From NCBI GenBank assembly GCA_034421955.1, contig DAOUJZ010000075.1:7683-71682 (forward strand): a DNA stretch of 64,000 nt, in the 5' to 3' direction. Of this stretch, positions 4,536 through 60,970 are shown in pieces. The DNA comes from Dehalococcoidia bacterium (GTDB lineage: Bacteria > Chloroflexota > Dehalococcoidia > Lucifugimonadales > CATOSD01). A program made the position numbers and the translations under genes. How positions within the stretch are numbered: the stretch's first letter is position 1; every line of letters begins with the position of its first letter. A model generated the notes under the pieces. That model saw nothing but the letters and a program-made list of their open reading frames with translations. It did not search any database and had not been told where the DNA came from.

Positions 4536-5561
4536 TCAGCCCGCGCCCATGCCGGCATTCTTCAGCGCCCCGCCCTTGATCATCTTCAGCGCCTCCGGGG
4601 GGCTCTTGACGGCGCTGAAGACGGAAGCCGACTCGAATCCGCAGTGCATCATGCAGTTGGCGCAGCGCGGGTCCTTGCCCACGCCGTAGCGCTCCCAAAG
4701 GTCGTCGCTGAACAGGTCGTCCACGTTCTGCGTGTGTCTGTCGGCGAGCAGATAGCAAGGCTCGCGCCAGCCCATCACCGTGTACGTAGGATTGGACCAC
4801 GCCGTGCACTGGTATTCGCGCTCTCCGCGCAGGAAGTCCAGGTAGAGCGGGTTGTTGTAAAAGCGAATGTTCCGCCTGGGATCGAGAACGTTCTTGAATA
4901 TGGTCCTCGCCTTCTGGCGCGAGACGAACATCTGCTGGTCGGGCACGGCCTCGTACTTGTAGCCGGGCGACACCATGGCGCCCTCGACGCCCATCTCGGT
5001 AACCGTGGTGAACATCTCTATCAGGTCGTCCTCGTCGCAGCCGTTGAAGACCGTGGTGTTGGTTGTGACCCTGTAGCCCTGTTCGATGGCGGCCTCTATG
5101 GCGCTCATGGCTATGCGAAACACGCCCTTGCGGTAGACGGACCTGTCGTGCGCCTCCTCCATACCGTCCAGGTGCACCACGAAGCAGAAGTACTTGGACG
5201 GCGGGATCTTCTTCATGACGCGCTCCATGAGCAGCGCGTTGGTGCACATGTAGACGAACTTCTTGGTGGCGGTGATGCGGTTGACTATCTCGTCGATTTG
5301 CGGGTGAAGCGTGGGCTCGCCGCCGGCGATGGACACGATGGGCGCGCCCGACTGCTCCACGGCGTCCAGGCACTGCCGCACCGTGAGCATCGAGTTCAGC
5401 ACCGGCTCGTACTCCCTGATGCGACCGCACCCCACGCAAGCGAGGTTGCACTTTTCGAGCGGCTCCAGCATGGTTACCAGCGGAAAGCGCTTACGGCGCG
5501 CGGCGGTGTTTTTGAGAATGTGCCAGCCGAGCCTGACTGCCAGTTCGAGCGGTCTGGCCAT
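4536..5561 (-). CDS. hpnH: radical SAM adenosyl-hopene transferase
   Basis: CNLACVGCGRI radical-SAM CxxxCxxC motif. I place the start at the internal MARPLELAV (ATG 5559-5561). The upstream 128 codons of the track ORF are Arg/Gly-rich and overlap the next gene. Confidence 0.85.
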   Translation of the reverse strand: MARPLELAVRLGWHILKNTAARRKRFPLVTMLEPLEKCNLACVGCGRIREYEPVLNSMLTVRQCLDAVEQSGAPIVSIAGGEPTLHPQIDEIVNRITATKKFVYMCTNALLMERVMKKIPPSKYFCFVVHLDGMEEAHDRSVYRKGVFRIAMSAIEAAIEQGYRVTTNTTVFNGCDEDDLIEMFTTVTEMGVEGAMVSPGYKYEAVPDQQMFVSRQKARTIFKNVLDPRRNIRFYNNPLYLDFLRGEREYQCTAWSNPTYTVMGWREPCYLLADRHTQNVDDLFSDDLWERYGVGKDPRCANCMMHCGFESASVFSAVKSPPEALKMIKGGALKNAGMGAG

Positions 5562-5583
5562 GAATGCACCTCTTACGTTTTGT

Positions 5584-5608
5584 CCCTTCCCCCTCGATGG
5601 GGGTGGGG
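5584..5608. repeat. family-A hairpin element (degenerate copy)
   Basis: CCCTTCCCCCTCGATGGGGGTGGGG between hpnH and the polyprenyl synthase gene. Confidence 0.5.
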
Positions 5609-5614
5609 TGAACT

Positions 5615-6718
5615 CTATCTTTCCCTTTCGAGCAGGAACTTCACAAGCTCTTCTATCTCTTCCCGCACGCCTGCCGCCATCTCGACGCCGGCCACGGCGT
5701 CGAGCGCCGAAGCGCAGTGACGTGCCGCCAGCCGCTGCGCGTAGCCGCGCGCGTCGACCCGCTCCATCACGTCCAGCACCAGCGCGACGTCGCCGTCGTC
5801 GAGCTCGTCTTTGTCGTAGACGCGTTCGATCTCGCGCCTGTCCGCGCCGCCCGCCCTGGCCATGGTATACACGATCGGAAGGGAGTTCTTCTTGCGGCGA
5901 ATGTCGGCGCCCACCGGCTTGCCGGTGGTCTGTTCCTCTCCCCACACGCCCAGGGAATCGTCCCTAATCTGAAAGGCGTACCCTACAGACCGCCCAAACG
6001 AACGGAAAGCCCGGATCATATCCGCGTCGGTGGTGCCGATGGCGACGCCCATGTCCAGCGAGCATCGGATAAGCGCGCCCGTCTTCTTCGAGATCATTAC
6101 CAAGTAGTCGTCGATAGCTATGTCGCGCCGGCCCTCGTAGGAGATGTCCAGCCACTGGCCCTCGATCATTTCCAGGTAGGCGCCGGTCAGCATCCTGGTT
6201 ATGCCGAGAGCCTGTCCGTAGTCCGCGCCGCCGTCGAGCAGCCGCTCGAGCGCCCTGTCCGCCACCACCCTGAGCACGTTGCCGGCCTGCAGGGCCCTGG
6301 GCACGTCCCAGGCGGCCCAGAGGGTAAGCCTGTGATGGCGCGTCTCGTCCTCGTCCTGTATGTCGTCGTGTACGAGCGAGAAATTGTGAATGAACTCTAA
6401 GGCGACGGCCGCGGGCAATGCTCTGTCGACGGAGCCGCCCACGGCCTCGCAGCCGAAAAGGCAAAGCGTAGGGCGAAGCGCCTTTCCCTGTGTGGCCTCG
6501 CAGGGGTTGCCGTCCACGTCCACCCAGCCCATGTAGTAGCGCAGCATATCGTACACGGGAATGTCACCGCACGACAGGTCGGCGCGCAGGGCGCCGGCTA
6601 TGTTGGCCCTGTACCTCTGGAACATCGCCGGGAGTCGATCTGCGCCCGCGTCGGCTTCGCGGATGGAGCTGGTCATATCAACGCCTCGAACCGTGGGCGG
6701 CCCAGTACGCCGGGGCAT
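5615..6718 (-). CDS. polyprenyl diphosphate synthase (FPP/GGPP synthase family)
   Basis: LVHDDIQDED (first DDxxD) and FQIRDDSLGVWG (second Asp-rich motif). The start may be an internal Met. Confidence 0.85.
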   Translation of the reverse strand: MPRRTGPPTVRGVDMTSSIREADAGADRLPAMFQRYRANIAGALRADLSCGDIPVYDMLRYYMGWVDVDGNPCEATQGKALRPTLCLFGCEAVGGSVDRALPAAVALEFIHNFSLVHDDIQDEDETRHHRLTLWAAWDVPRALQAGNVLRVVADRALERLLDGGADYGQALGITRMLTGAYLEMIEGQWLDISYEGRRDIAIDDYLVMISKKTGALIRCSLDMGVAIGTTDADMIRAFRSFGRSVGYAFQIRDDSLGVWGEEQTTGKPVGADIRRKKNSLPIVYTMARAGGADRREIERVYDKDELDDGDVALVLDVMERVDARGYAQRLAARHCASALDAVAGVEMAAGVREEIEELVKFLLERER

Positions 6719-9520: not shown

Positions 9521-10645
9521 GTGGACCTAGGACTTACAGAAGCCCAGCAGATGCTGCGCAACAGCGCCCGCGAGTTCCTCGAAGCCGAGTGCACCGAGGG
9601 ATTCGTGCGCGCGATGGAGGAGGACGAGCGCGGCTACACACCCGAGAGCTGGCAGAAGATAGCCGAAAACGGCTGGCTTGGACTCATCTTCCCCGAGGAG
9701 TACGGAGGCGCAGGGCTGGAGTTCCTGGACCTGTGCATCCTGCTGGAGGAGATTGGCGGCGCTATGCTCCCGGGTCCGTTCTTCTCCACCGTCGTGCTGG
9801 GCGGCATGGCCATCCTCGACGCCGGCAGCGACGAGCAGAAGCGCCAGTACCTGCCGGGCATCGCGGAGGGCCAGGTGATAGCGACCCTGGCGCTTACGGA
9901 GCCCGACGTCCGCTGGGACGCCGCCGGCATCCGCGCGACCGCCGAGCCGGACGGCGACGGCTTCGTGATCAACGGAACCAAGCTGTTCGTCCCGAACGCC
10001 CACGTGTCCGACTACCTGGTAGTGGCGGCCCGGACGGGGGAGGCCGACGAGGACGTGTCGCTCTTCATCCTGTCCTCCAACACGCCCGGCGTATCGCAAA
10101 CTCTGCTCAAGACTATAGCGTCCGACCGACAGTCCGAGGTGACGTTCAGTGGTGTCCACGTACCCCGTTCAGCTCTGCTGGGCGAGCTGAACGGCGGCTG
10201 GCCAACTATCGCCAGGGTTATCCAGTGGGGGGCCGTGGGCAAGTGCGCCGAGATGGTGGGCAACGGTCAGAAGGTGCTCGACATGACGGTGGAGTTCGTG
10301 AAGCAGCGAATCCAGTTCGGGCGGCCCATAGGCAGCTTCCAGGCGATTCAGCACCACTGCGCCAACATGGCCACCGACGTCGAGGGGTCGCGCTACGTGA
10401 CCAGTCAGGCCGCGTGGCGGCTTTCGGAGGGACTGCCCGCCGAAAGCGAGGTCGCCATGGCCAAGGCGTGGGTCAGCGACGCCGTGCGCCGGGTGTGCGC
10501 CACCGGCCACCAGTGCCACGGCGCGATAGGCTTTACCAAAGAGCATAGCATGCAGCTCTACTCGCGCCGCGCGAAGGCCGCCGAGCTCGCGTTCGGCGAC
10601 TCCAGGGAACACCTGGAGCGCGTGGCCGAGGCGATAGGGCTGTAG
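9521..10645 (+). CDS. acyl-CoA dehydrogenase family protein
   Basis: 374 aa with ACAD N/M/C layout: MDLGLTEAQQMLRNSAREF, and QIQFGRPIGSFQAIQHHCANM at the C-terminus. Confidence 0.9.
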   Translation: MDLGLTEAQQMLRNSAREFLEAECTEGFVRAMEEDERGYTPESWQKIAENGWLGLIFPEEYGGAGLEFLDLCILLEEIGGAMLPGPFFSTVVLGGMAILDAGSDEQKRQYLPGIAEGQVIATLALTEPDVRWDAAGIRATAEPDGDGFVINGTKLFVPNAHVSDYLVVAARTGEADEDVSLFILSSNTPGVSQTLLKTIASDRQSEVTFSGVHVPRSALLGELNGGWPTIARVIQWGAVGKCAEMVGNGQKVLDMTVEFVKQRIQFGRPIGSFQAIQHHCANMATDVEGSRYVTSQAAWRLSEGLPAESEVAMAKAWVSDAVRRVCATGHQCHGAIGFTKEHSMQLYSRRAKAAELAFGDSREHLERVAEAIGL

Positions 10646-10670
10646 GGCCTAAGCCGCGTCCGGCGAGACC

Positions 10671-11813
10671 GTGAGACGCGAGACACTCGCGGCCCGGGCC
10701 GCCCACCACGTGGACCCGGCGACGGGTGCGGTTACGGTTCCCGTCCACCTGTCAACGACGTTCGAGCGCGCGCCCGACGGCGACTATCCGCTCGGATACA
10801 CGTACGCCCGCTCCGGCAATCCCAACCGCGCGCTGCTGGAAGACCGCCTGGCCGCGCTGGAGGGAGGCGCGGGAGCCGCCTGCTTCGCGTCCGGCATGGC
10901 CGCCGCGGGAGCCGTGTTCCACACGCTGGCCGCGGGCGACCACGTGATCGCGCCCTCCGACTGCTATCACGGCACCGCCGCGCTGCTCCGCGACGTGTTC
11001 GCGCGGTGGGGCCTGGAGGCGTCGTTCGTGGACCTGACCGACGAGTCCCAGGTGCTCGCCGCGCTGCGGTCCAACACCAGGCTCGTGTGGGTGGAGACGC
11101 CGTCCAACCCGCTGCTCAAGATAACCGACGTGGAGCGCACAGCCGCCATCGCGCACGAGGCGGGCGCCCTTTGCGTGTGCGACAACACCTGGGCGACGCC
11201 CATGCTTCAGCGGCCCATCGAGGCGGGCGCCGACGCGGTGGTGCACTCGACGACCAAGTACGTCGGCGGCCACGGCGACCTGACCGGCGGCGCGGTTGTG
11301 TGCCGGGACGACGGCGAGCTGCTCGAAAGCGTCAGGCGAACGCAGAGCGCCTACGGCGCCGTGCCGTCGGCCTTCGACTGCTGGCTGGCGCTGCGCGGAA
11401 TGCGGACGCTGCACCTGCGCATGAGGGCGCACTCGGACAACGCCGCCCGGGTGGCGGAGTTCCTGAGCACGCATCCGCGCGTGGAGGCGGTCCACTACCC
11501 GGGTCTTCCGGGCCACCCCGGGCGCGAGACCGCGGCCCGGCAGATGGACGGGTTCGGTGGCATGGTGTCCTTCCAGGTGGTGGGCCAGGTCGCGGGCCAG
11601 GTCGTGGGAGGCCGCGAAGCGGCCATGCGCGTGGCCGCCGGGGTGAGGCTGTTCACGCGCGCGACGAGCCTGGGCGGCACCGAGAGCCTGATAGAGCACC
11701 GCGCATCCATCGAAGGCCCGAATACTCGAACGCCGCAGAACCTGCTGCGAATGTCTATTGGCCTGGAACACCCCGACGACCTGATAGAGGACCTGGCCCA
11801 GGCCCTGGGTTAG
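10671..11813 (+). CDS. PLP-dependent Cys/Met metabolism enzyme (cystathionine gamma-synthase/beta-lyase family)
   Basis: [13 protein letters not shown] (PLP lysine), SLGGTESL, 380 aa. Confidence 0.9.
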
Positions 11814-18357: not shown

Positions 18358-20235
18358 TTGCGGGAGCGTGCCAAGGTGCCCAGAAGGCTGAGCGGACTCA
18401 TTGGCTCCGTCGTGGGAAAGGGACGGGCCGAGGAAGAAGAGGAGAGCCTGCCGCCCGCCAGGGAGAGCTGTCTGGTCTGCGGCAGCGCGCTGGCCGGGTC
18501 GGTCCAGTACGACCGGTACCGCGTGTGCGGCCTCTGCGGCTTCCACTACAGCATGAACGCGCGCGAGCGAGTCGACTCGCTCGCTGACCCCGGTAGTTTT
18601 CGCGAGATCAACCGCTCGATAACTTCCCTCGACCCGCTGTCCTTCTCCTCCAAGGTCTCCTACAAACAGCGCATATTTCGCGACCAGCGGCGCACCGGAC
18701 TGACCGAGGCCGCGGTGACCGGTACCTGCACAATAGGCGGCAGCCCGGCCATGCTCATAGTGCTCGACTTCGGGTTCATGGGGGGCACCATGGGCTGCGT
18801 GGTGGGCGAGAAGGTTGCGCTCGCGCTGGAGCGCGCGTCGCGCAATCTGCTGCCCGCGATAGCCATTGTGACCAGCGGAGGAGCGCGCATACAGGAAGGG
18901 GCGCTGTCGCTGATGCAGATGGCGAAGACGTCGATCGCGTCCGGCCGGCTGGACGCGCGGGGCCTTCCCTTCATATCGGTGCTCGCCAACCCCGCCACCG
19001 GCCAGGCCTATGCCAGCTTCGCGAGCTTGGCCGACATCGTGGTGGCCGAGCCCGGCGCTATCGTGGGCGTGAGCTCGCTGCGCCAGATACAGCAGTCCAC
19101 CGGCGAGCCACTGCCCGAGCGCGCCCACACCGCCGAGTCGTTCGAGCGCCACGGCGTGCTCGACGCGGTGGTGGAGCGCGCCAAGCTGAGGGATATGCTG
19201 GCGACGACGCTGGACCTGCTTGGCCCGCAGTACCGGCTCACCCCTATGCGGAAGCGCGACCAGCGGCGGTTCGTCGAGACGAGCGCGCCGCAGGCGCCGC
19301 AGGCATGGGACTCGGTGCAGCTCGCACGGCACGAAGGGCGGCCCACTTCGCTCGGCTACATAGACACCATATTCGCGCCGTTCGTCGAGTTGCACGGCGA
19401 CCGGCACACGGCGGACGACCCGGCTATCGTGTGCGGCATCGGGCGCCTGGGAGGCCAGACAGTTGCGGTTGTCGGACAGGAGCGCGACCGCTCCGATGCC
19501 GACGGCGACCGCAACGACGGGCGCACGTCGCCCGCCGGCTTCCGGAAAGCGCAGCGCGTGCTGCGCATGGCAGCCAAGTTCGACATACCCATCATAACGC
19601 TGATAGACACGCCCGGCCCCTACCTGAGCCTGCAGGCCGAGCAGGGGGGACTCGGCGGCGCGATAGCCGAGACCATGGCGCTGATGGCCAGGCTCGAGGT
19701 GCCGTCGATGTCGGTCGTCATCGGCGAGGGCGGCAACGCGGGTGCGCTCGCGCTGGGCGTCGCCGACCGCGTGCTGATGATGGAGAACGCCATCTACTCC
19801 ATCATCTCGCCGGAGGATGCGGCAGAGCTGATATACCAGGACGAGGCGAGAGCCGAAGAGGCCGCCGCCTCGCTCAAGCTCACCGCCGCGGACTGTCTGT
19901 CGCTCGGTATCGTCGACAGCGTTGTGCAGGAGCCGCCCGGCGGCGCGCACCTGAACCCCGGCGAGGCGGCGCGCAACCTGAGACGGGAGCTTCTCGCCGA
20001 GCTGGTGGAACTGAGGTCGGCGCCCTCCAAGCGGCTGCTGCGGGACCGCTACAGGAAGTTCCGCAACGTGGGCGAGTACAGTTCGCACTTCCGGACCGCA
20101 ATCAACCGCGAAGTGGACGCGCTCCAGGGGCTCGTGGTCACAGGCGTCAGGCGCATGACGCGCAGGCAGCAAAACGCCCAGTCCGACGACGTGTCGCGCA
20201 ACGGCATAGATACGCTGTTCAGCGCGGGCGATTAG
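18358..20235 (+). CDS. acetyl-CoA carboxylase carboxyltransferase, fused beta (AccD) and alpha (AccA) subunits
   Basis: N-terminal Cys4 zinc ribbon (CLVCGS...CGLCGFH) and CT-beta region, followed by a CT-alpha-like half (GRPTSLGYID...) in one 625-aa ORF. The exact start is uncertain. Confidence 0.85.
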   Translation: MRERAKVPRRLSGLIGSVVGKGRAEEEEESLPPARESCLVCGSALAGSVQYDRYRVCGLCGFHYSMNARERVDSLADPGSFREINRSITSLDPLSFSSKVSYKQRIFRDQRRTGLTEAAVTGTCTIGGSPAMLIVLDFGFMGGTMGCVVGEKVALALERASRNLLPAIAIVTSGGARIQEGALSLMQMAKTSIASGRLDARGLPFISVLANPATGQAYASFASLADIVVAEPGAIVGVSSLRQIQQSTGEPLPERAHTAESFERHGVLDAVVERAKLRDMLATTLDLLGPQYRLTPMRKRDQRRFVETSAPQAPQAWDSVQLARHEGRPTSLGYIDTIFAPFVELHGDRHTADDPAIVCGIGRLGGQTVAVVGQERDRSDADGDRNDGRTSPAGFRKAQRVLRMAAKFDIPIITLIDTPGPYLSLQAEQGGLGGAIAETMALMARLEVPSMSVVIGEGGNAGALALGVADRVLMMENAIYSIISPEDAAELIYQDEARAEEAAASLKLTAADCLSLGIVDSVVQEPPGGAHLNPGEAARNLRRELLAELVELRSAPSKRLLRDRYRKFRNVGEYSSHFRTAINREVDALQGLVVTGVRRMTRRQQNAQSDDVSRNGIDTLFSAGD

Positions 20236-20918: not shown

Positions 20919-20988
20919 GTGGTTCCCCCTATCTCCGCGGCGCTGAAAGTCTGAGGCGGTCCGGGGTCCGGGCGGGAGCGAGCCGGAA

Positions 20989-21735
20989 TCAAAGGACCTC
21001 TTCGAGGTAGCCGCGAACGGCGGCGACGAATTGGCGGGCGTTCCACAGAACTTCCTCCGCCGTGCTCTGCTCGAACGGTTCCGTGCTGTAGTCGCCCAAT
21101 AGTCGGAGCCTCTGCGCCCTGTCGAAGTCCAGGTGCAATTGCCTGGGCAGCAGTCCCGCGCTAGAGAAATGGCGTCCGAAGCCCGACACGACGCCGCTGT
21201 GCCTGGAATAGGTTAGACCCTTCGTCAGCAGCGCGGCGGACGCGGCGTAGAACATGGCGTAGTAGGCGCGCGAGGCGGCGTAGTCGAAGTACTCGTCGTC
21301 CAATAGTCCTCCAGCCGCCTTCAGACTCCTTTCAGCCTCCGCCATCAGATTCTCTATCTCGGTGCTCAGCTCAGCTGCCTCCTCCGTGAAGATGAACATG
21401 CCCTCGCGCTTGACGTTGATAAAGAAGGGCGAACGCCCCGTCTGGTACTTGCGCTCGCTCATCGGCATGGGAGACAACAGCGCCACGCGCTCTTCGGAGA
21501 TGCGACGCGCCACGCCGTCCACCTTGGAGGTGTACTCGGCGACGGATTCGTCGTCCTTGAACAGCACGATAATGTCGATGTCCGACTCTTCGTGCTCTTC
21601 ACCGCGAGCGTAAGAGCCGTAGAGCACCAGCCCGCGGAGGTGGGACGCGCAGGCCGCCCGCAGGCCCACGCGAAACTCTTCGATGACCTTCCAGAGGTCA
21701 ACGGCGGGAAGCGTATGTTGGGCGGTTTGCGTCAC
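20989..21735 (-). CDS. fused minimal nucleotidyltransferase (MNT) - HEPN domain protein
   Basis: N-terminal GLVLYGSYARGEEHEESDIDIIVLF (GS...DxD NTase motif). C-terminal helical HEPN-like half with YSRHSGVVSGFGRHF (R-x4-6-H type). Confidence 0.75.
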   Translation of the reverse strand: MTQTAQHTLPAVDLWKVIEEFRVGLRAACASHLRGLVLYGSYARGEEHEESDIDIIVLFKDDESVAEYTSKVDGVARRISEERVALLSPMPMSERKYQTGRSPFFINVKREGMFIFTEEAAELSTEIENLMAEAERSLKAAGGLLDDEYFDYAASRAYYAMFYAASAALLTKGLTYSRHSGVVSGFGRHFSSAGLLPRQLHLDFDRAQRLRLLGDYSTEPFEQSTAEEVLWNARQFVAAVRGYLEEVL

Positions 21736-44277: not shown

Positions 44278-44377
44278 CACCCCCATCCTAACCTTCCCCC
44301 TGCGAGGGGGAAGGGACTCTTCGACACACCCTCACCCTGACCCTCTCCCATCGAGGGAGAGGGGACTATTCGGAAGG
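44278..44377. repeat. two tandem family-A hairpin elements
   Basis: 44278-44323 has stem CTTCCCCC/GGGGGAAG. 44325-44377 has stem CCCTCTCCC/GGGAGAGGG. Both have CACCC..CCTRACC left arms and GGGACT..TTCG right arms. Confidence 0.85.
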
Positions 44378-51071: not shown

Positions 51072-51232
51072 TTGCTACTCCTTGGTGCTCATCCGATCAT
51101 CCCCTAATGCCGAAACAGCTAGATTTGCATTTGGCAACAGCACAAGCTTACCACGCAGTTGCACTTCTTGCACATTCTCAACTTTAGTCACAGGATAGTA
51201 GGCGTAATGAACGCAAAATGACACACCCCCCT

Positions 51233-51259
51233 GGGTTCCCGCGTTCGTGGGAACGACGG
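51233..51259. repeat. family-B hairpin element
   Basis: GGGTTCCCGCGTTCGTGGGAACGACGG, stem GTTCCC/GGGAAC, preceded by a C6 run. Confidence 0.75.
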
Positions 51260-51318
51260 TAGGGAAGGCGAAAATGAGGATACGCCAGCCGGCAACGACG
51301 ATACGCCACCCCGCTCAT

Positions 51319-51346
51319 GGATTCCGGCTCGGGGGCCGGAATGACG
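51319..51346. repeat. family-B hairpin element
   Basis: GGATTCCGGCTCGGGGGCCGGAATGACG, stem ATTCCGGC/GCCGGAAT. Confidence 0.75.
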
Positions 51347-53110: not shown

Positions 53111-53137
53111 CCATGCGTGTGTGAAGGGCGGCGCGAA

Positions 53138-55558
53138 ATGACGGCAGCGCTTTCGCACCTGCGCGTGCTCGACCTGACCGGGCCGGGCGCGCAGTACTGC
53201 GGGCGGCTGATGGCCGACCTGGGCGCGGACGTGGTGAAGATCGAGCCGCCACAAGGCGACGCCGCGCGCCACCTGCGTCCCTTCGCGGGGGACGAGCCGG
53301 GGCCGGAAGGCGGCATCCGGTTTCTGCCGCTCAACGTCAACAAGCGGAGCGTCGCACTCGACCTCGGCGACGAGACCGGCAGGCGTCGCTTCGAGGCGTT
53401 GGCGCGGACGGCGGACGTCCTACTGGACGACGGCTCGGCGTTCGCACTGGACGAGCTGGGGCTGGGCTATGACGCGCTGAGCCGCGCCAATCCGCGCTTG
53501 GTGTACGTGACGATTACGCCGTTCGGGCTGAGCGGTCCTTACAGCGGCTTCCTGTCCGGCGAGTTGATTGTGCAGGCGGCCGGCGGGCTGATGTACGGCT
53601 TCGGCGATCCGGACGAGCGGCCCGCGATGGCTCCGTTCTCTCCCGGCCACCAGCTAGCGGCCCAGCACGCGGCGTTCGCGGCGCTGGCGGCCGTCCGGCA
53701 CCGCGCCGACTCGGGGCGCGGCCAGCACGTCGAGGTGTGCGTCCAGGAGGTGCTGGCGAACATCCTGGCCTACTTCGGTCGGTACGCCTCCGACGGGCAG
53801 ATCAACCGGCGGCCGGGGGGCAGTCCCACCATCGCGCCCACCAACACCTACCCGACGAGCGACGGATTCATCTACATGCAGCCCACCTTCCCGCGCCACG
53901 TGGACGCGCTGTTCGAGTGGCTGGACAACCCGGTGCTGGAGGACGACCTGTGGAAGGACGCGGCGTTCCGGCGGCAGAACGGGGACGTGCTGAACGACAT
54001 CATCTCAGAGTTCAGCATGGGCTTCACGAAGATGGGGTTCGCGGAGGAGGCGCAGCGGCGGCACATCCCCACCGCGCCGCTGATGACGATTCACGACCTG
54101 ATGCAGGACGACCACCTGGCGTATCGCGAGTTCCTGGTGGACGTGGATCATCCGGTGGTGGGGAAGTATCCGACGCCGACGGGGGCGTTCCGGATGGGGG
54201 CGAGTCCGTGGCGGCTGTACCGTCCGCCGCCGCTGCTGGGCCAGCACACGGACGAGGTACTTGCGGAGTGGGCGGCGGACGAGCCGCTGGGCGGCCAAAC
54301 CCGTCATTCTGAGCTTGTCGAAGAATCTCAGCCGGATTCCTCGGCTGCGCTCGGAATGGCAGAGCCGCCGCTGCCCCTGAAAAACACTCGGGTGCTGGAC
54401 TTCAGCCGGGTGTGGGCGGGGCCGTACATGACGCGCTACCTGGCCGAGCTGGGCGCGGAGGTCATCAAGGTCGAGTCCAACATGCTGCCGGACAGGCAGC
54501 AGGCGCGGGGGCCGTTCGCGTCGTTCAGCTTCGTGGAGATCAACCGCAGCAAGCGCTCGGTGACGCTGAACATGCGCTCGCGGGAGGCGGTAGAGCTGTG
54601 CGAGCGGCTCATAGGCCTGTGCGACGTGGTGGTGGAGAACTTCCGGCCCGGCGTGCTGGACGGCTGGGGAATCGGCTACGAGCGGCAGCGCGAACTGAAC
54701 CCGGACATCATCTACATCAGCATGCCGGGCATGGGCATCGACGGCCCGCGCGCGTCCGAGCTCGCGTTCGGGCAGAGCCTGCTGGCGTACACGGGCGCGA
54801 TGGGCATCTGGGCGCAGCCTGAGTCCCCCGGCATCACGCGGCCCAAGGTGCCGCTGCCGGACTTCTACGGCGCGGCGACGGGCGCGTTCGCGGCGCTGGC
54901 GGCGCTGGAGCTGCGCGACCGCACGGGGCAGGGCCAGATGATCGAGCTGGCGCAGCTAGAGGCGCTGGTGGCGACGATGGGGGAGGCGTTCCTGGACTAC
55001 TTCTTCAACGGCCACGTCCCGGAGGCGAGGGGCAACTGGGATGCGAACGCGGCGCCGCATGACGTGTTCGAGTGCCTGGGGTTCGACTCGTGGTGCGCGA
55101 TCGCGTGCTACACGGACGAGCAGTGGCGGCGGCTGCGCGGCGCGATGGAGGAGCCGGAGTGGGCGTCGGATGCGAAGTTCGACACGCTGGAGGGCCGGCT
55201 GGCGAACCTAGACGAGCTGAACACAAGGCTCGGCGAGTGGACGTCGGACATGACGGCGCGCCAGGTGATGCGGCTGCTACAGCGCGAGGGCGTGCCGGCG
55301 GGAATCGTGGCGAGCGGGGAGGACCTGTACCACGACGTGAACCTGCGTGCGCGGGACTACGTGGTGACGGTGGACCACCGGCCGGTGGGGGAGGTGCACG
55401 AGCACCCGGGCGCGACGGTGCGGCTGAGCGACACGCCGAGCCGGGTGATCGCGGGGTGCCCGCCGCTGGGGGCGGACAACGGGCACTACTTCGGCGAGCT
55501 GCTGGGGCTGACGGGGGAGGAGATCGCGCGGCTGGAGGGGGAGCGGGTTATCTATTGA
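53138..55558 (+). CDS. tandem-domain family III (CaiB/BaiF) CoA-transferase
   Basis: Two complete modules: LRVLDLTGPGAQYCGRLMADLGADVVKIEPP...GQHTDEVL and RVLDFSRVWAGPYMTRYLAELGAEVIKVES...GADNGHYF. They are joined by a repeat-derived linker. Confidence 0.85.
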   Translation: MTAALSHLRVLDLTGPGAQYCGRLMADLGADVVKIEPPQGDAARHLRPFAGDEPGPEGGIRFLPLNVNKRSVALDLGDETGRRRFEALARTADVLLDDGSAFALDELGLGYDALSRANPRLVYVTITPFGLSGPYSGFLSGELIVQAAGGLMYGFGDPDERPAMAPFSPGHQLAAQHAAFAALAAVRHRADSGRGQHVEVCVQEVLANILAYFGRYASDGQINRRPGGSPTIAPTNTYPTSDGFIYMQPTFPRHVDALFEWLDNPVLEDDLWKDAAFRRQNGDVLNDIISEFSMGFTKMGFAEEAQRRHIPTAPLMTIHDLMQDDHLAYREFLVDVDHPVVGKYPTPTGAFRMGASPWRLYRPPPLLGQHTDEVLAEWAADEPLGGQTRHSELVEESQPDSSAALGMAEPPLPLKNTRVLDFSRVWAGPYMTRYLAELGAEVIKVESNMLPDRQQARGPFASFSFVEINRSKRSVTLNMRSREAVELCERLIGLCDVVVENFRPGVLDGWGIGYERQRELNPDIIYISMPGMGIDGPRASELAFGQSLLAYTGAMGIWAQPESPGITRPKVPLPDFYGAATGAFAALAALELRDRTGQGQMIELAQLEALVATMGEAFLDYFFNGHVPEARGNWDANAAPHDVFECLGFDSWCAIACYTDEQWRRLRGAMEEPEWASDAKFDTLEGRLANLDELNTRLGEWTSDMTARQVMRLLQREGVPAGIVASGEDLYHDVNLRARDYVVTVDHRPVGEVHEHPGATVRLSDTPSRVIAGCPPLGADNGHYFGELLGLTGEEIARLEGERVIY
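54302..54359. repeat. two family-B elements forming the inter-domain linker of the CoA-transferase ORF
   Basis: CGTCATTCTGAGCTTGTCGAAGAATCTC (54302-54329) and GGATTCCTCGGCTGCGCTCGGAATGG (54334-54359). Confidence 0.8.
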
Positions 55559-57889: not shown

Positions 57890-59530
57890 TTACAACCCTT
57901 GCAGCTCCACAACCGCCCCGTCAATGTACAGGATGCGTAGGGCGTTGAGGGCGGCGGCGGCGACCTGCGGGCGTTGCGGCTCGGAATAGGTATCGTATAC
58001 GCCGGACAGGATGTCGGCTACTGTCGCTCGGCCGTTGATGCGGGAGACGAGGGCGCCGACGAGGTCGCTGCAGGGCATGCCCTCGGGGCGGTCGGGTGTG
58101 GTGAGGACGTGGCCCCAGACGAACTCGCCCTCGGCGACGACGGGCTTGCGCTCGAGGACTGCGCCCGGCGCGAGGCGGGGCACGGCGGCGAGCAGCGCGT
58201 CCTGGGTCACAGCACCCGGCGCGAGGCGGGCGGTGCGCTCGGCGCGGGCGCGCTCGACGGCGCGAACGCCTTCCACCACGTCGGCGGGCGGCTCGCCGCG
58301 CTCCAGCGCCACGCGCTCATAGCCGCGCGGGGACTGGCCGGCGAGCGCGCGGACGAACGCCTGGCGCGGTGCGAGGGCGTCGCCGGCGTCCAGCAGGCGG
58401 CGGGCCTCCCAGAAGTAGGACTCCTCGGTGCGGTTGCTGGTGTAGAAGAGCCTGGCCAGTTCCCGGAAGTGGTCGTACTCGTTGCGGTACAACTCCTGGT
58501 ACACGCGCGCTGCGGGCTCGCGCATGTCCGGGTTTCGCAGCGCCGTGGTGACGTAGGCGGCGGCGAGGACGCCGGACATCATGGCGAGGTGGACGCCGGA
58601 GGAGAAGAGCGGGTCGACGAAGCAGGCGGCGTCGCCCACCAGCACGAAACCGTCGCCGGCGGTGCGCTCGGAGACGTAGGACCAGTCGCGGGCTACGTAG
58701 GGACCGTCGGTGAGGGTGGCGTCGCGCAGCATGGCGGACGTGTGCGGGGCCTGGGCTACCTGGCTCGCCAGGAATCGCTCGGGGCCTTCTTCGCGCAGGC
58801 GCTCGCGTCCGGCGGCCGCGTCCACGACCGCGCCGACGCTGGCATAACCTACCGCATCGGCGGCAACTGGGTTCCCGCTTTCGCGGGAATGACGGATTGG
58901 GGGGGTCGCGCCGACGCTGGCCGCGCCGGTGTGGAGGGGGATGGTCCAGAGCCAGCCGTTGGGGTAGGACTCGATGAAGATGTTGGACTCGTCCGGCGTG
59001 GGGAGCCTGCGCGCGTCGCGGTAGTAGGCGTAGACGGCGAGGTTTCGGAAAAAGTCGTCCCAGCGGCGAAGTCCGAAGCGTCGGCTGATGAGCGCGGACT
59101 GGCCGCTCGCGTCGACGACGAAGCGGGCGCACACCTCGGACTCGGAGCCGTCCGGTCCGCGCACTCGCACGCCCTCCACCGCGCCGTCGCGCTCCAGGAC
59201 GCCGGTGACGGCGTGTTGCTCCCGAACGTCCACGCCGTGGGAGCGGGCGTTGTCGAGCAGGATGCCGTCGAATTGGGGACGCCATACCTGGTAGGAGTGC
59301 GGGTAGGTGCGGCTGGTCTCGCGGAAGTACCACGACCAAGGGGACTTGTCCCGGCCCCAGACCATGGTTGCGCCGTACTTGGGGAGGAATCCGGCGTCGC
59401 GCACGCGCTCGTACGCGCCGAGCTCTTCGAGCACGGGGATGCTGGCGGGGAGCAGCGACTCGCCTACGTGGTGGCGGGGAAATCGCTCGCGCTCGAGCAG
59501 CGCCACGCGGAAGCCCTTGCGGGCGAGCAT
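57890..59530 (-). CDS. flavin-dependent halogenase-like / FAD-dependent oxidoreductase (possibly decaying)
   Basis: GWLWTIPL (WxWxIP) and FVDPLFSSGVHLA motifs. The GGGPGG FAD motif lies upstream of the first ATG/GTG/TTG. There is an in-frame repeat insertion at 58844-58906. Confidence 0.75.
   Translation of the reverse strand: MLARKGFRVALLERERFPRHHVGESLLPASIPVLEELGAYERVRDAGFLPKYGATMVWGRDKSPWSWYFRETSRTYPHSYQVWRPQFDGILLDNARSHGVDVREQHAVTGVLERDGAVEGVRVRGPDGSESEVCARFVVDASGQSALISRRFGLRRWDDFFRNLAVYAYYRDARRLPTPDESNIFIESYPNGWLWTIPLHTGAASVGATPPIRHSRESGNPVAADAVGYASVGAVVDAAAGRERLREEGPERFLASQVAQAPHTSAMLRDATLTDGPYVARDWSYVSERTAGDGFVLVGDAACFVDPLFSSGVHLAMMSGVLAAAYVTTALRNPDMREPAARVYQELYRNEYDHFRELARLFYTSNRTEESYFWEARRLLDAGDALAPRQAFVRALAGQSPRGYERVALERGEPPADVVEGVRAVERARAERTARLAPGAVTQDALLAAVPRLAPGAVLERKPVVAEGEFVWGHVLTTPDRPEGMPCSDLVGALVSRINGRATVADILSGVYDTYSEPQRPQVAAAALNALRILYIDGAVVELQGL
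58844..58906. mobile_element. 63-bp family-B element inserted in frame in the halogenase-like gene, flanked by a 15-bp duplication
   Basis: Core GGGTTCCCGCTTTCGCGGGAATGACGG (58869-58895, 7-bp perfect stem). CGCGCCGACGCTGGC lies at 58829-58843 and again at 58907-58921. Confidence 0.8.
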
Positions 59531-59634
59531 CGTCGCCGCGGTGCTGCCGCCAGGCCCGCCGCCGATGACCGCGACGTCGGCGCTACGGCAGTGCCAGCCT
59601 CTTGGGGGTCGCTTAGCCTGTCCGATAACCAGGT

Positions 59635-59684
59635 CACCACCCCCATCCTAACCTTCCCCCGTCAAGGGGGAAGGGACTTATCGG
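59635..59684. repeat. family-A hairpin element
   Basis: CACCACCCCCATCCTAACCTTCCCCCGTCAAGGGGGAAGGGACTTATCGG, bracketed by inverted TCCGATAA / TTATCGGA. Confidence 0.85.
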
Positions 59685-59692
59685 ATAGGCTC

Positions 59693-60970
59693 TTAGTCGT
59701 CGCTGGCGACTGCGGCCTCGGCGGGCGCCGTTTCCGTTGCGCCGTTGGCGATGGGCTTGTTGGTGGCCGGGTCGACCTCGAACGGGCTGAACAGCTCCAG
59801 CTCCTTGCCCATCTCGCGGACGGCGGGGATCACCTCTTCGCCCATGAGCCTGAGGCTGCGCATCTGGTCCTCGTGGGTCATGGCGCCGTCGCCGTCCCAG
59901 AAGAAGACGCTGCCGGGGCGCAGGTACTCCAGCACGTGGCGGATCTTGGGCAGCACGGTCTTGGGCGTGCCGGTGATGATCGTGTAGTCGTTGATCTGGT
60001 CCTCGTAGGCGCGCGAGAGCTGGCCGCCGCGGTTGACGGTGGCAGCGTCCCGCGTGGGCAGCACGCGCGTGCGGGACGTGAGGCCGGGCAGGGAGAGGAG
60101 CGCGGGGTTGGCCGTGCCCTCGTTGCCGGCGAGGAAGGGGTTGCTGGGGCCCTGGACGTACTTGCGAGCCACCTCTTCCGCCAGCTCCTCGGTCTCATCG
60201 ACGTGGACCTTCCACAGGTAGCCGATGTTCTGGGGGCCGGACTCGTAGCCGAGCTCCTCGGCGGAGTCGTGGTAGAGCTGGAAGGCCTGGCGGGTCGGCT
60301 CGAGCTTGGTGGCGAGCATGATGTAGGGGATGCGGTTCTTCGCGGCCCAGCGCAGGGAGTCGCGGCTCACCACACCGGGCAGCCAGATGGGCGGATGCGG
60401 CTTCTGGAAGGGCCGCGCCCAGGGGTTGACGTAGCGGTAGTGGTAGTGCTTGCCCTCCCAGCGGAAGGGGCCGGGCTCGGTCCAGGCCTTGACGATGAAG
60501 TCGTGTGCCTCCTGGAAGCGCTCCCAGTTGTAGGGAGGCGGCGCGTTATGCGCCACGCTCTCGCGTCCGGTGCCGCGCACCCAGCCGGAGACCAGGCGGC
60601 CGCGTGAGATCATGTCGATGATGGCGAGCTGCTCCACCAGCCAGAGGGGGTCGTCCCAGATGGGCAGGATGTTGCCGAGCAGGACTATCTTGGCGCGCTT
60701 GGTGACGCGGGCGAGAATGCCGGCCTCGATGTTCATGGTGCCGCCCATGCAGAAGGGCGTGGAGTGGTGCTCGTTGAGCATGAGGCCGTCGAAGCCCATC
60801 TCCTCGGCGTACAGCCGCTCGTCGATGTAGCGGTTGTAGAGGTCGGAGCCGAGCTCGGGGTCGTAGATGTCGTTGCTGAGATCGAGGTCCTTGATGGGCA
60901 GGCCCGTGGCTCCGAAGTAGCCGGACTTGGGGTCCTGGTACGGTCTCTCGGTGAAGTGGCCAATAAACAT
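59693..60970 (-). CDS. LLM-class (luciferase-like) flavin-dependent monooxygenase
   Basis: MFIGHFTERPY...GFDGLMLNEHHSTPFCM...ISRGRLVSGWVRG. Start at ATG 60968-60970; the upstream part of the track ORF is low-complexity. Confidence 0.85.
   Translation of the reverse strand: MFIGHFTERPYQDPKSGYFGATGLPIKDLDLSNDIYDPELGSDLYNRYIDERLYAEEMGFDGLMLNEHHSTPFCMGGTMNIEAGILARVTKRAKIVLLGNILPIWDDPLWLVEQLAIIDMISRGRLVSGWVRGTGRESVAHNAPPPYNWERFQEAHDFIVKAWTEPGPFRWEGKHYHYRYVNPWARPFQKPHPPIWLPGVVSRDSLRWAAKNRIPYIMLATKLEPTRQAFQLYHDSAEELGYESGPQNIGYLWKVHVDETEELAEEVARKYVQGPSNPFLAGNEGTANPALLSLPGLTSRTRVLPTRDAATVNRGGQLSRAYEDQINDYTIITGTPKTVLPKIRHVLEYLRPGSVFFWDGDGAMTHEDQMRSLRLMGEEVIPAVREMGKELELFSPFEVDPATNKPIANGATETAPAEAAVASDD

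Follow-up and report, generated by a model that had tools for sequence, protein, structure and literature searches.

A hairpin repeat of the NTS/SRM family lies in frame in a halogenase-like gene of a Dehalococcoidia bacterium and is flanked by a 15-bp direct repeat

Introduction

Hairpin repeats of the NTS/dRS3/SRM family are among the most widespread repeats of bacteria, and their partner nucleases, the Ssn enzymes, were characterised only in 2025. The 28-nt Neisseria Transformation Sequence (NTS), CGTCATTCCCGCGMAVGCGGGAATCYRG, encompasses the classical dRS3 repeat ATTCCC-N8-GGGAAT; the GIY-YIG nuclease SsnA binds and cuts it only as single-stranded DNA, in one orientation and a few bases 5' of the motif (PMC11893778). 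In the same work, which described the Ssn nuclease family (Nat Commun, 2025), the NTS was generalised to Ssn-related motifs (SRM), which many bacteria have on either side of their ssn genes, much as in insertion sequences, and the way in which these repeats spread was left open (PMC11893778). Here we analysed one such hairpin, carried by a flavin-dependent halogenase-like gene in a stretch of 64,000 nucleotides (hereafter the window) of contig DAOUJZ010000075.1, from a metagenome-assembled genome of a Dehalococcoidia bacterium (Chloroflexota).

Repeats located inside genes have been reported in several bacteria, as Rickettsia palindromic elements (RPE; Ogata et al. 2000), BRE in Betaproteobacteria, BOX, RUP and SPRITE in pneumococcus and QMITE in Coxiella (PMC10969869, PMC3184786). 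The SRM hairpin family and the in-frame insertion of palindromes are already known. What is new here is the host phylum, the in-frame position of an NTS-type hairpin within an enzyme, the pair of filled and empty sites with a duplication of 15-17 bp, and the series of decayed and expanded alleles at a single site. Our overall reading, which we consider probable, is that an SRM inserted into the halogenase-like gene by capture at a staggered break, and that the filled alleles go back to a single old origin followed by repeated precise loss. There is a modest chance that the site is informative on how SRM repeats move.

Results

The insert and the duplicated 15-mer

The 15-mer CGCGCCGACGCTGGC is present at 58829-58843 and again, as an exact repeat, at 58907-58921. 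These are its only two sites in the window, even when one mismatch is allowed (0.06 matches expected by chance), and none of 100 shuffles yielded two copies of it. Between them lie 63 nt (58844..58906, minus strand) containing a hairpin at 58872..58889, with a 7-bp stem, TTCCCGC/GCGGGAA, and a loop of 4 nt that the coding strand reads as GAAA; this hairpin was read directly and is also the central stem of the DNA fold. Within the insert, GGGTTCCCGCTTTCGCGGGAATGACGG at 58869-58895 holds the stem arms at 58872-58878 and 58883-58889 and the loop TTTC. The gene lies on the minus strand, and in its orientation the upstream copy, GCCAGCGTCGGCGCG (58907..58921), encodes a first ASVGA, the insert encodes TPPIRHSRESGNPVAADAVGY, and the downstream copy (58829..58843) encodes a second ASVGA running into VVD. 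Since the 63 nt and one 15-nt copy add 78 nt, or 26 codons, the frame of the halogenase-like open reading frame (ORF; 57890..59530, minus strand) is kept, and it reads ...WLWTIPLHTGAASVGATPPIRHSRESGNPVAADAVGYASVGAVVD... across the insert, with ASVGA duplicated after the WxWxIP motif. A preliminary description, made from the letters of the window alone, had already pointed to the exact duplication, to the hairpin and to the frame-preserving gain of 26 codons, and our searches, fold and translation agree with it on these points.

The insert consists of a 12-nt left arm, ACCCCCCCAATC, a hairpin core of 27/28 nt and a right arm of 23/24 nt, GTTGCCGCCGATGCGGTAGGTTAT. The core is oriented by the sequences next to its palindrome, CGTCA 5' and CCAG 3'. 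Terminal inverted repeats are lacking: the insert ends with ACCCCCCCAATC and GGTAGGTTAT, and its sole strong inverted repeat is the central hairpin.

The core belongs to the NTS/dRS3/SRM family

On the minus strand, the core at 58894..58867, CGTCATTCCCGCGAAAGCGGGAACCCAG, carries one substitution relative to CGTCATTCCCGCGMAVGCGGGAATCYRG, which is within the single mismatch to the 28-nt consensus that was allowed in the work defining it in Neisseria (PMC11893778). The degenerate SRM pattern, HGTCWYN(0-2)YYVSBRHN(0-5)WNVSBRGN(0-2)RNCYNB, matches as a regular expression at 58867-58894, and the core has the form of a semi-palindromic hairpin (7-bp stem, 4-nt loop) between non-palindromic, orienting flanks. 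At the sequence level, the one-substitution distance and the pattern match place the insert as a small hairpin repeat of the NTS/dRS3 SRM family.

The window holds 3-5 copies of the family in 64 kb, and the strict SRM pattern gives 2 matches where 0.84 are expected. In the Dehalococcoidia loci that we collected, 58-77 hairpin copies were counted in 1.6 Mb. Their stems co-vary (CCCGC/GCGGG, CCGGC/GCCGG and others) between conserved flanks, CGTCATTCC and GGAAYCCAG; tandem 5' half-units often stand before the hairpins, which in some genomes form inverted pairs like the ends of MITEs (miniature transposable elements with inverted repeats). The preliminary description was right that the repeat is multi-copy, but the family is not novel, being that of the hairpins linked to Ssn nucleases (PMC11893778).

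Two of these loci contain small GIY-YIG genes between inverted family hairpins, in an SRM-ssn-SRM arrangement: L012 at 5440-5800 on the minus strand (PF01541, 5e-15) and L056 at 19400-19830 (PF01541, 3e-16). The L012 protein has thousands of relatives at 70-80% identity, named from several phyla. The L056 unit is itself enclosed by a further outer inverted repeat, TTAAGAATTAGGA...GTTACGC. A literature search for repeat-encoded peptides returned no paper, a protein search with 65 aa across the insert gave no candidates, and Rfam and tRNA scans of the window found nothing. For annotation, the peptides RHSRESGNP, SFPRKRE and VIPAKAG inside ORFs are useful marks of SRM-type repeats.

Comparison with described repeat systems

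The halogenase copy resembles the described NTS and SRM repeats by its 28-nt core, one substitution away, by CGTCA on the 5' side and C after the palindrome, by its hairpin and by its multi-copy nature, and the small GIY-YIG genes between inverted copies in related Dehalococcoidia loci recall the NTS-ssnA-NTS arrangement. It differs in its host, since NTS and SRM were described mainly in Pseudomonadati, in a text without Chloroflexota (PMC11893778), and in standing in frame within a conserved enzyme; for the family, neither a target duplication nor a footprint of insertion has been reported. The SRM family is thereby extended to Chloroflexota.

The likeness to RPE is one of phenomenon: a palindromic repeat stands within a conserved ORF of a housekeeping-type enzyme, leaves the frame unbroken, is absent from orthologues and occupies a position that is predicted to be compatible with the fold. 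RPE are about 105-150 nt long, whereas the insert has 63 nt and a long perfect flanking duplication, and the window offers two intragenic cases, not dozens.

With MITEs such as Correia and ERIC, the insert shares its small size, the lack of coding capacity of its own, a flanking direct repeat (15/15, with a single copy in empty orthologues) and a presence/absence polymorphism among relatives. Unlike MITEs, the 63-nt unit has only a central hairpin and no terminal inverted repeats, other copies are without duplication, and copies do not share the whole element including its ends; the best non-orthologous of 62 copies matches at 18/36 arm positions. The target duplication of MITEs is usually 2-10 bp, and the 15-17 bp observed here are longer. 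MITE-like dimers of two inverted hairpins do occur in other genomes (L085/L086, L046, L063 and L077), without duplications.

Repetitive extragenic palindromes (REP), their mosaic arrays (BIME) and the associated RAYT transposases of the IS200/IS605 type are similar in having short hairpins, a small dedicated nuclease gene flanked by repeats, clusters or tandem arrays and, mostly, no target duplication. The enzyme is GIY-YIG here and an HUH tyrosine transposase there, and the motif is another one.

Empty sites in relatives

The insert was compared with the syntenic loci of eight GTDB Dehalococcoidia species (L004-L011, proteins 83-88% identical) and of a sister contig from ENA (L001). All nine carry a single GCCAGCGTCGG(C/G)GCG without the insert, and at the nucleotide level their empty sites read GGC-NNN-GCCAGCGTCGG(C/G)GCG-GTC. 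BLAST alignments of the window with each of them break exactly at the insert, and both blocks cover the same 14-15 nt of the subject because it holds one copy of the duplicated 15-mer. Among the best 120 of thousands of homologues, 108 were scorable; the short form HTGxASVGAVVD was seen in 105 of them and an insert in the other 3, and homologues at 55-66% identity likewise have no insert. Judged from these alignments, the empty sites, including those of the distant homologues, indicate that the insert is derived and not an ancestral loop. The footprint of a repeat-element insertion proposed in the preliminary description was thus upheld as regards the empty sites and the multi-copy family; its timing is another matter, since three orthologues are filled and the insertion is possibly old and shared.

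Filled alleles and half-unit arrays

The three filled orthologues (P0002, from L002; P0005, from L003; and P0006) have collinear inserts that occupy this codon too and are bounded, in every case, by a repeat of their own, suggesting that the insertion may be old and shared and not fresh in the genome of the window. L003 adds exactly 78 nt, as does the window, at the same codon and in the same orientation and frame; its duplicates differ at 5/15 positions and its hairpin has two substitutions, one of which disrupts a stem pair. In L002 the duplicate is a perfect 17-nt one, CTCGCCAGCGTCGGCGC, and five extra 5' half-units (CGTCATTCCC...) stand before the full hairpin, while P0006 has two extra units.

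Tandem 5' half-units of 17-22 nt (CGTCATTCCC and a few bases) precede full hairpins in L002 (3640-3760), in L007 (16140-16290), at several sites in L058 and L079, and in P0006. At the junctions, the next unit begins a few bases 5' of GTCATT, near the reported SsnA cut. This sequence pattern suggests that half-unit arrays may grow by nick-and-slip.

The long duplication is not a signature of the family

A check proposed in the preliminary description was to score whether the other copies are flanked by duplications of 10-20 bp. We searched for direct repeats, exact or with mismatches tolerated, 60-70 nt on either side of about 65-77 hairpin copies, and their distribution was that of random positions. 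The only exceptions were the halogenase copy of the window and one 115-nt tandem array in L068. The long target duplication is not a signature of the family, an idea that this distribution rules out, and the staggered-break step proposed below stands on the halogenase site alone.

The L068 array (about 20950-21700) has a period of about 115 nt, with a GTCATTCTGAGCAAAGCGAAGAAT hairpin in every unit. The hairpin dimers of L085, L086 and L046 have no flanking duplication; in L085 (6080-6170) and L086 (930-1020), from organisms of lower G+C, the dimer is a perfect palindrome of 72 nt made of a hairpin, a 16-nt spacer and an inverted hairpin, and this hairpin agrees with that of the window as far as the first bases of the right arm.

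Origin of the filled alleles

The insertion that we propose would have begun with the capture of the hairpin repeat at a break, or at a pair of staggered nicks 15-21 nt apart, where fill-in synthesis would have duplicated the target. Such a capture would be atypical for the SRM family, whose other copies are without such duplications, and the Ssn nuclease is only a candidate for the inserting enzyme. Most likely, the filled allele goes back to one event that preceded the divergence of the present group of species. The exact empty site would later have been restored several times, as slippage from one flanking direct repeat to the other skipped the hairpin, and the hairpin core would have been kept or re-homogenised in two lineages while decaying in a third. 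Direct repeats flanking a hairpin are a classic substrate for precise, RecA-independent excision, as with Tn5 and Tn10, and this is one reason for preferring a single origin with losses. Another is that the window and L003 share the 78-nt length, the codon, the orientation and the frame. In addition, their arms resemble each other specifically: they differ at 15/36 positions, which fits neutral divergence at a proportion of synonymous differences (pS) of 0.30 and is far from random (P = 4e-4), and with 21/36 matches the L003 arms are the most similar to those of the window among 62 family copies, the others reaching at most 18. A minority GGAAC variant is common to all halogenase copies, and identity along the halogenase gene is mosaic, so these lineages recombine, which also speaks for a single origin. 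We give this single origin somewhat better than even chances, and slightly prefer one old insertion, lost precisely on several occasions, to recurrent insertion. As an observation on the mosaic itself, in the last ~150 codon-columns (alignment 1500-1650) the window is 81-85% identical to L001-L003 and only 68-73% to L004-L006, unlike in the rest of the gene.

Several results weigh against the old, single insertion. A codon-based tree joins the window to the empty L001 as its sister (99% bootstrap) and L002 with L003 to the empty L008 (100%). This topology leaves either one origin with at least three precise losses, or a transfer of the allele between lineages, or at least two insertions at the same site. 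Close to the insert, its flanks show no signal of recombination. An import of the filled allele from the L002/L003 lineage was rejected as the window flanks carry variants of the L001/L004 type, although a tract shorter than about 100 nt would still fit. Both the window (15/15) and L002 (17/17) have perfect duplicates, which is unexpected for an insertion older than a synonymous divergence (dS) of about 0.35, and the core is identical between the window and L002 at 27/27 positions (P = 2e-4 under neutral drift), so that a single origin requires selection or gene conversion on the core. There is also no ssn gene in the window (tblastn), and none among the best 120 hits could be assigned to contigs of the close relatives.

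Part of this evidence is what one would expect if related SRM elements of defined length had inserted independently in the window and in the L002/L003/P0006 lineages, each duplicating 15-17 bp, so that the duplication is a young target-site duplication. The polyphyly of the filled alleles, the perfect duplicates and the core, identical between window and L002 as well as to the family consensus, fit such a recurrence. So does the register of the duplicates, which start at GCC and span 15 nt in the window but start at CTC and span 17 nt in L002 and L003. The right arm of L002 is, moreover, too divergent from that of its sister L003 (13/24 differences, beyond neutral drift, P = 1e-4), suggesting secondary events at the site. 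However, among the other family copies such duplications are lacking, and the inserts of the window and L003 both add exactly 78 nt, with arms specifically alike although arms are not conserved family-wide. A donor with these arms was not found, as a metagenome scan with the core and the start of the arm gave three loci in unrelated contexts only. We also considered a structured target that would attract the element, and rejected it because empty sites fold no better than shuffles (z about 0). Recurrent site-specific insertion is, all in all, a possible but less probable explanation. Either view of the origin needs something extra, namely selection or conversion on the core, or a site preference.

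Two further explanations were considered. Template switching or fold-back synthesis could have made the quasi-palindrome and the duplication locally, the likeness to the family being secondary; indeed, the right arm CGCCGATGCGG repeats the adjoining duplicated target imperfectly and in inverted orientation, and in the DNA fold the two pair as an imperfect stem of 13 bp (58844-58921, minus strand). But such complementarity, which is common in DNA of 70% G+C, is not seen in the filled alleles L002 and L003, the fold has a z-score of only -2.4, and chance events at the site could not give the core 27/28 matches to a consensus that was defined in Neisseria. We therefore hold a local origin to be very improbable. 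The source being a metagenome-assembled genome and the insert a repeat, one could also think of a chimeric join induced by the repeat during assembly. This is the least credible of all: the frame is kept, the flanks are perfectly collinear with the orthologues, three independent assemblies (L002, L003 and P0006) hold homologous inserts at the same codon, and a mis-join would not produce a tandem 15-bp target duplication.

Beyond the old insertion with repeated loss, the filled/empty pair with its decayed and expanded alleles offers a concrete case for models of insertion, precise excision and array growth. A bolder proposal, which we regard as rather unlikely, is that the halogenase site is a rare preserved footprint of SRM movement, to be read either as staggered-break integration with duplications of 15-21 bp that can re-target the site, or as an actively maintained intragenic hairpin. 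On this proposal, the half-unit arrays would mark repeated nick-and-slip at an Ssn cut just 5' of the motif. If the hairpin were maintained, the core being identical at 27/27 positions over a dS of about 0.34 while the arms drift neutrally, this would imply a function for intragenic Ssn sites, or continuous gene conversion among SRM.

The halogenase-like host and its tolerance of the insert

The host coding sequence (57890..59632, minus strand) encodes a flavin-dependent halogenase-like protein of the Trp_halogenase / FAD_binding_3 families (PF04820, E = 1e-37; PF01494), as also seen in the orthologue alignment. It has WLWTIP at the WxWxIP halogenase motif and thousands of homologues. We built an AlphaFold2 model on the orthologue alignment (mean predicted local distance difference test score, pLDDT, of 74), for which Foldseek gave the halogenases CmlS, FasV and CndH as best matches. 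Residues 223-250, that is the upstream copy and the insert, have pLDDT below 50 and lie between the predicted strands 216-223 (WLWTIPL) and 252-260 (GYASVGAVV). In this model, the downstream ASVGA copy is predicted to take the native strand position, which is that of the hairpin partner in the orthologues, and the upstream copy and the insert are predicted to make up a disordered loop at the surface, placed where the beta-hairpin after WxWxIP has its turn. Landing in such a turn would explain why the insert is tolerated. The tolerance of a 26-aa loop by the fold had been proposed for modelling, and the prediction points that way: the insert would behave as an extended hairpin loop, the remainder of the protein being halogenase-like.

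The ratio of nonsynonymous to synonymous substitutions (dN/dS) of the host gene is 0.12 against L001 and 0.12-0.21 across comparisons of the window with its relatives, showing that the gene remained under purifying selection. An antisense ORF of 877 aa (57974..60607, plus strand) was treated as a spurious ORF of high-G+C DNA, because the minus-strand protein has thousands of homologues.

The first ATG of the gene is at 59530, but the frame, with DVAVIGGGPGGS, is open to 59647. The FAD-binding GxGxxG segment (GGGPGG / DVAVIGGGPGGS) is in frame and upstream of the first ATG, GTG or TTG, and the only conserved near-cognate start is a CTG at 59632-59630.

Other family copies and a second intragenic case

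The related copies mentioned in the preliminary description are present. An intergenic family hairpin, CGTCGTTCCCACGAACGCGGGAACCCAG, lies at 51231..51258 on the minus strand, with 3 substitutions relative to the 28-nt NTS consensus, and an intergenic variant with a CCGG stem, CGTCATTCCGGCCCCCGAGCCGGAATCCAT, lies at 51317..51346 on the same strand and is also found in L007, L009 and L011. The two hairpins of 51231-51346 have the same orientation and are about 86 nt apart; the orthologous hairpin of L007 is opposite relative to the conserved flank.

A second intragenic case was found at 54301..54361, where two inverted hairpins of the superfamily, GCCATTCCGAGCGCAGCCGAGGAATC and CCGTCATTCTGAGCTTGTCGAAGAATCTC on the opposite strand, encode a linker in frame. 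The ORF concerned (53117..55558, plus strand, 813 aa) encodes a two-domain CaiB-like protein in all relatives, and the linker peptide of the window is RHSELVEESQPDSSAALGM. The linker is plain in L004, L005, L008 and L010 and repeat-derived in L006, L007 and L009; those of L007 and L009 contain several in-frame TLGMT(R/G)(A/T) units, which come from tandem half-units on the opposite strand. Together, the halogenase and CaiB cases show that, in this clade, these repeats are retained in coding sequence at places where the protein can accommodate them. As with the RPE of Rickettsia, such hairpins can stand in frame within enzymes, in this case in a halogenase-like protein and in a linker of CaiB type, and add loops to proteins.

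A distinct palindromic element upstream of the gene

The halogenase-like gene of L011 (about 10000-11580) has 1242 nt from MLARKG and then a stop, possibly owing to a frameshift, a pseudogene or a long-read error. In the window, a distinct palindromic element of 77 nt (59615-59691, minus strand) stands between the stop of a luciferase-like monooxygenase gene (59693-59695) and the halogenase-like gene; it ends with AGCCTATCCGATAA and TTATCGGACAGGCT and has an inner hairpin, CCTTCCCCC-TTGAC-GGGGGAAGG. At its position, L001, L005 and L006 have TAA, 6 nt and TTG, the halogenase start. The element replaces this TTG in the window and in L004, which also carries it, so that in both no ATG, GTG or TTG precedes GGGPGG and only the conserved CTG does. 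Its 42-nt core is found again at 44278-44318 of the window and in many Dehalococcoidia loci.

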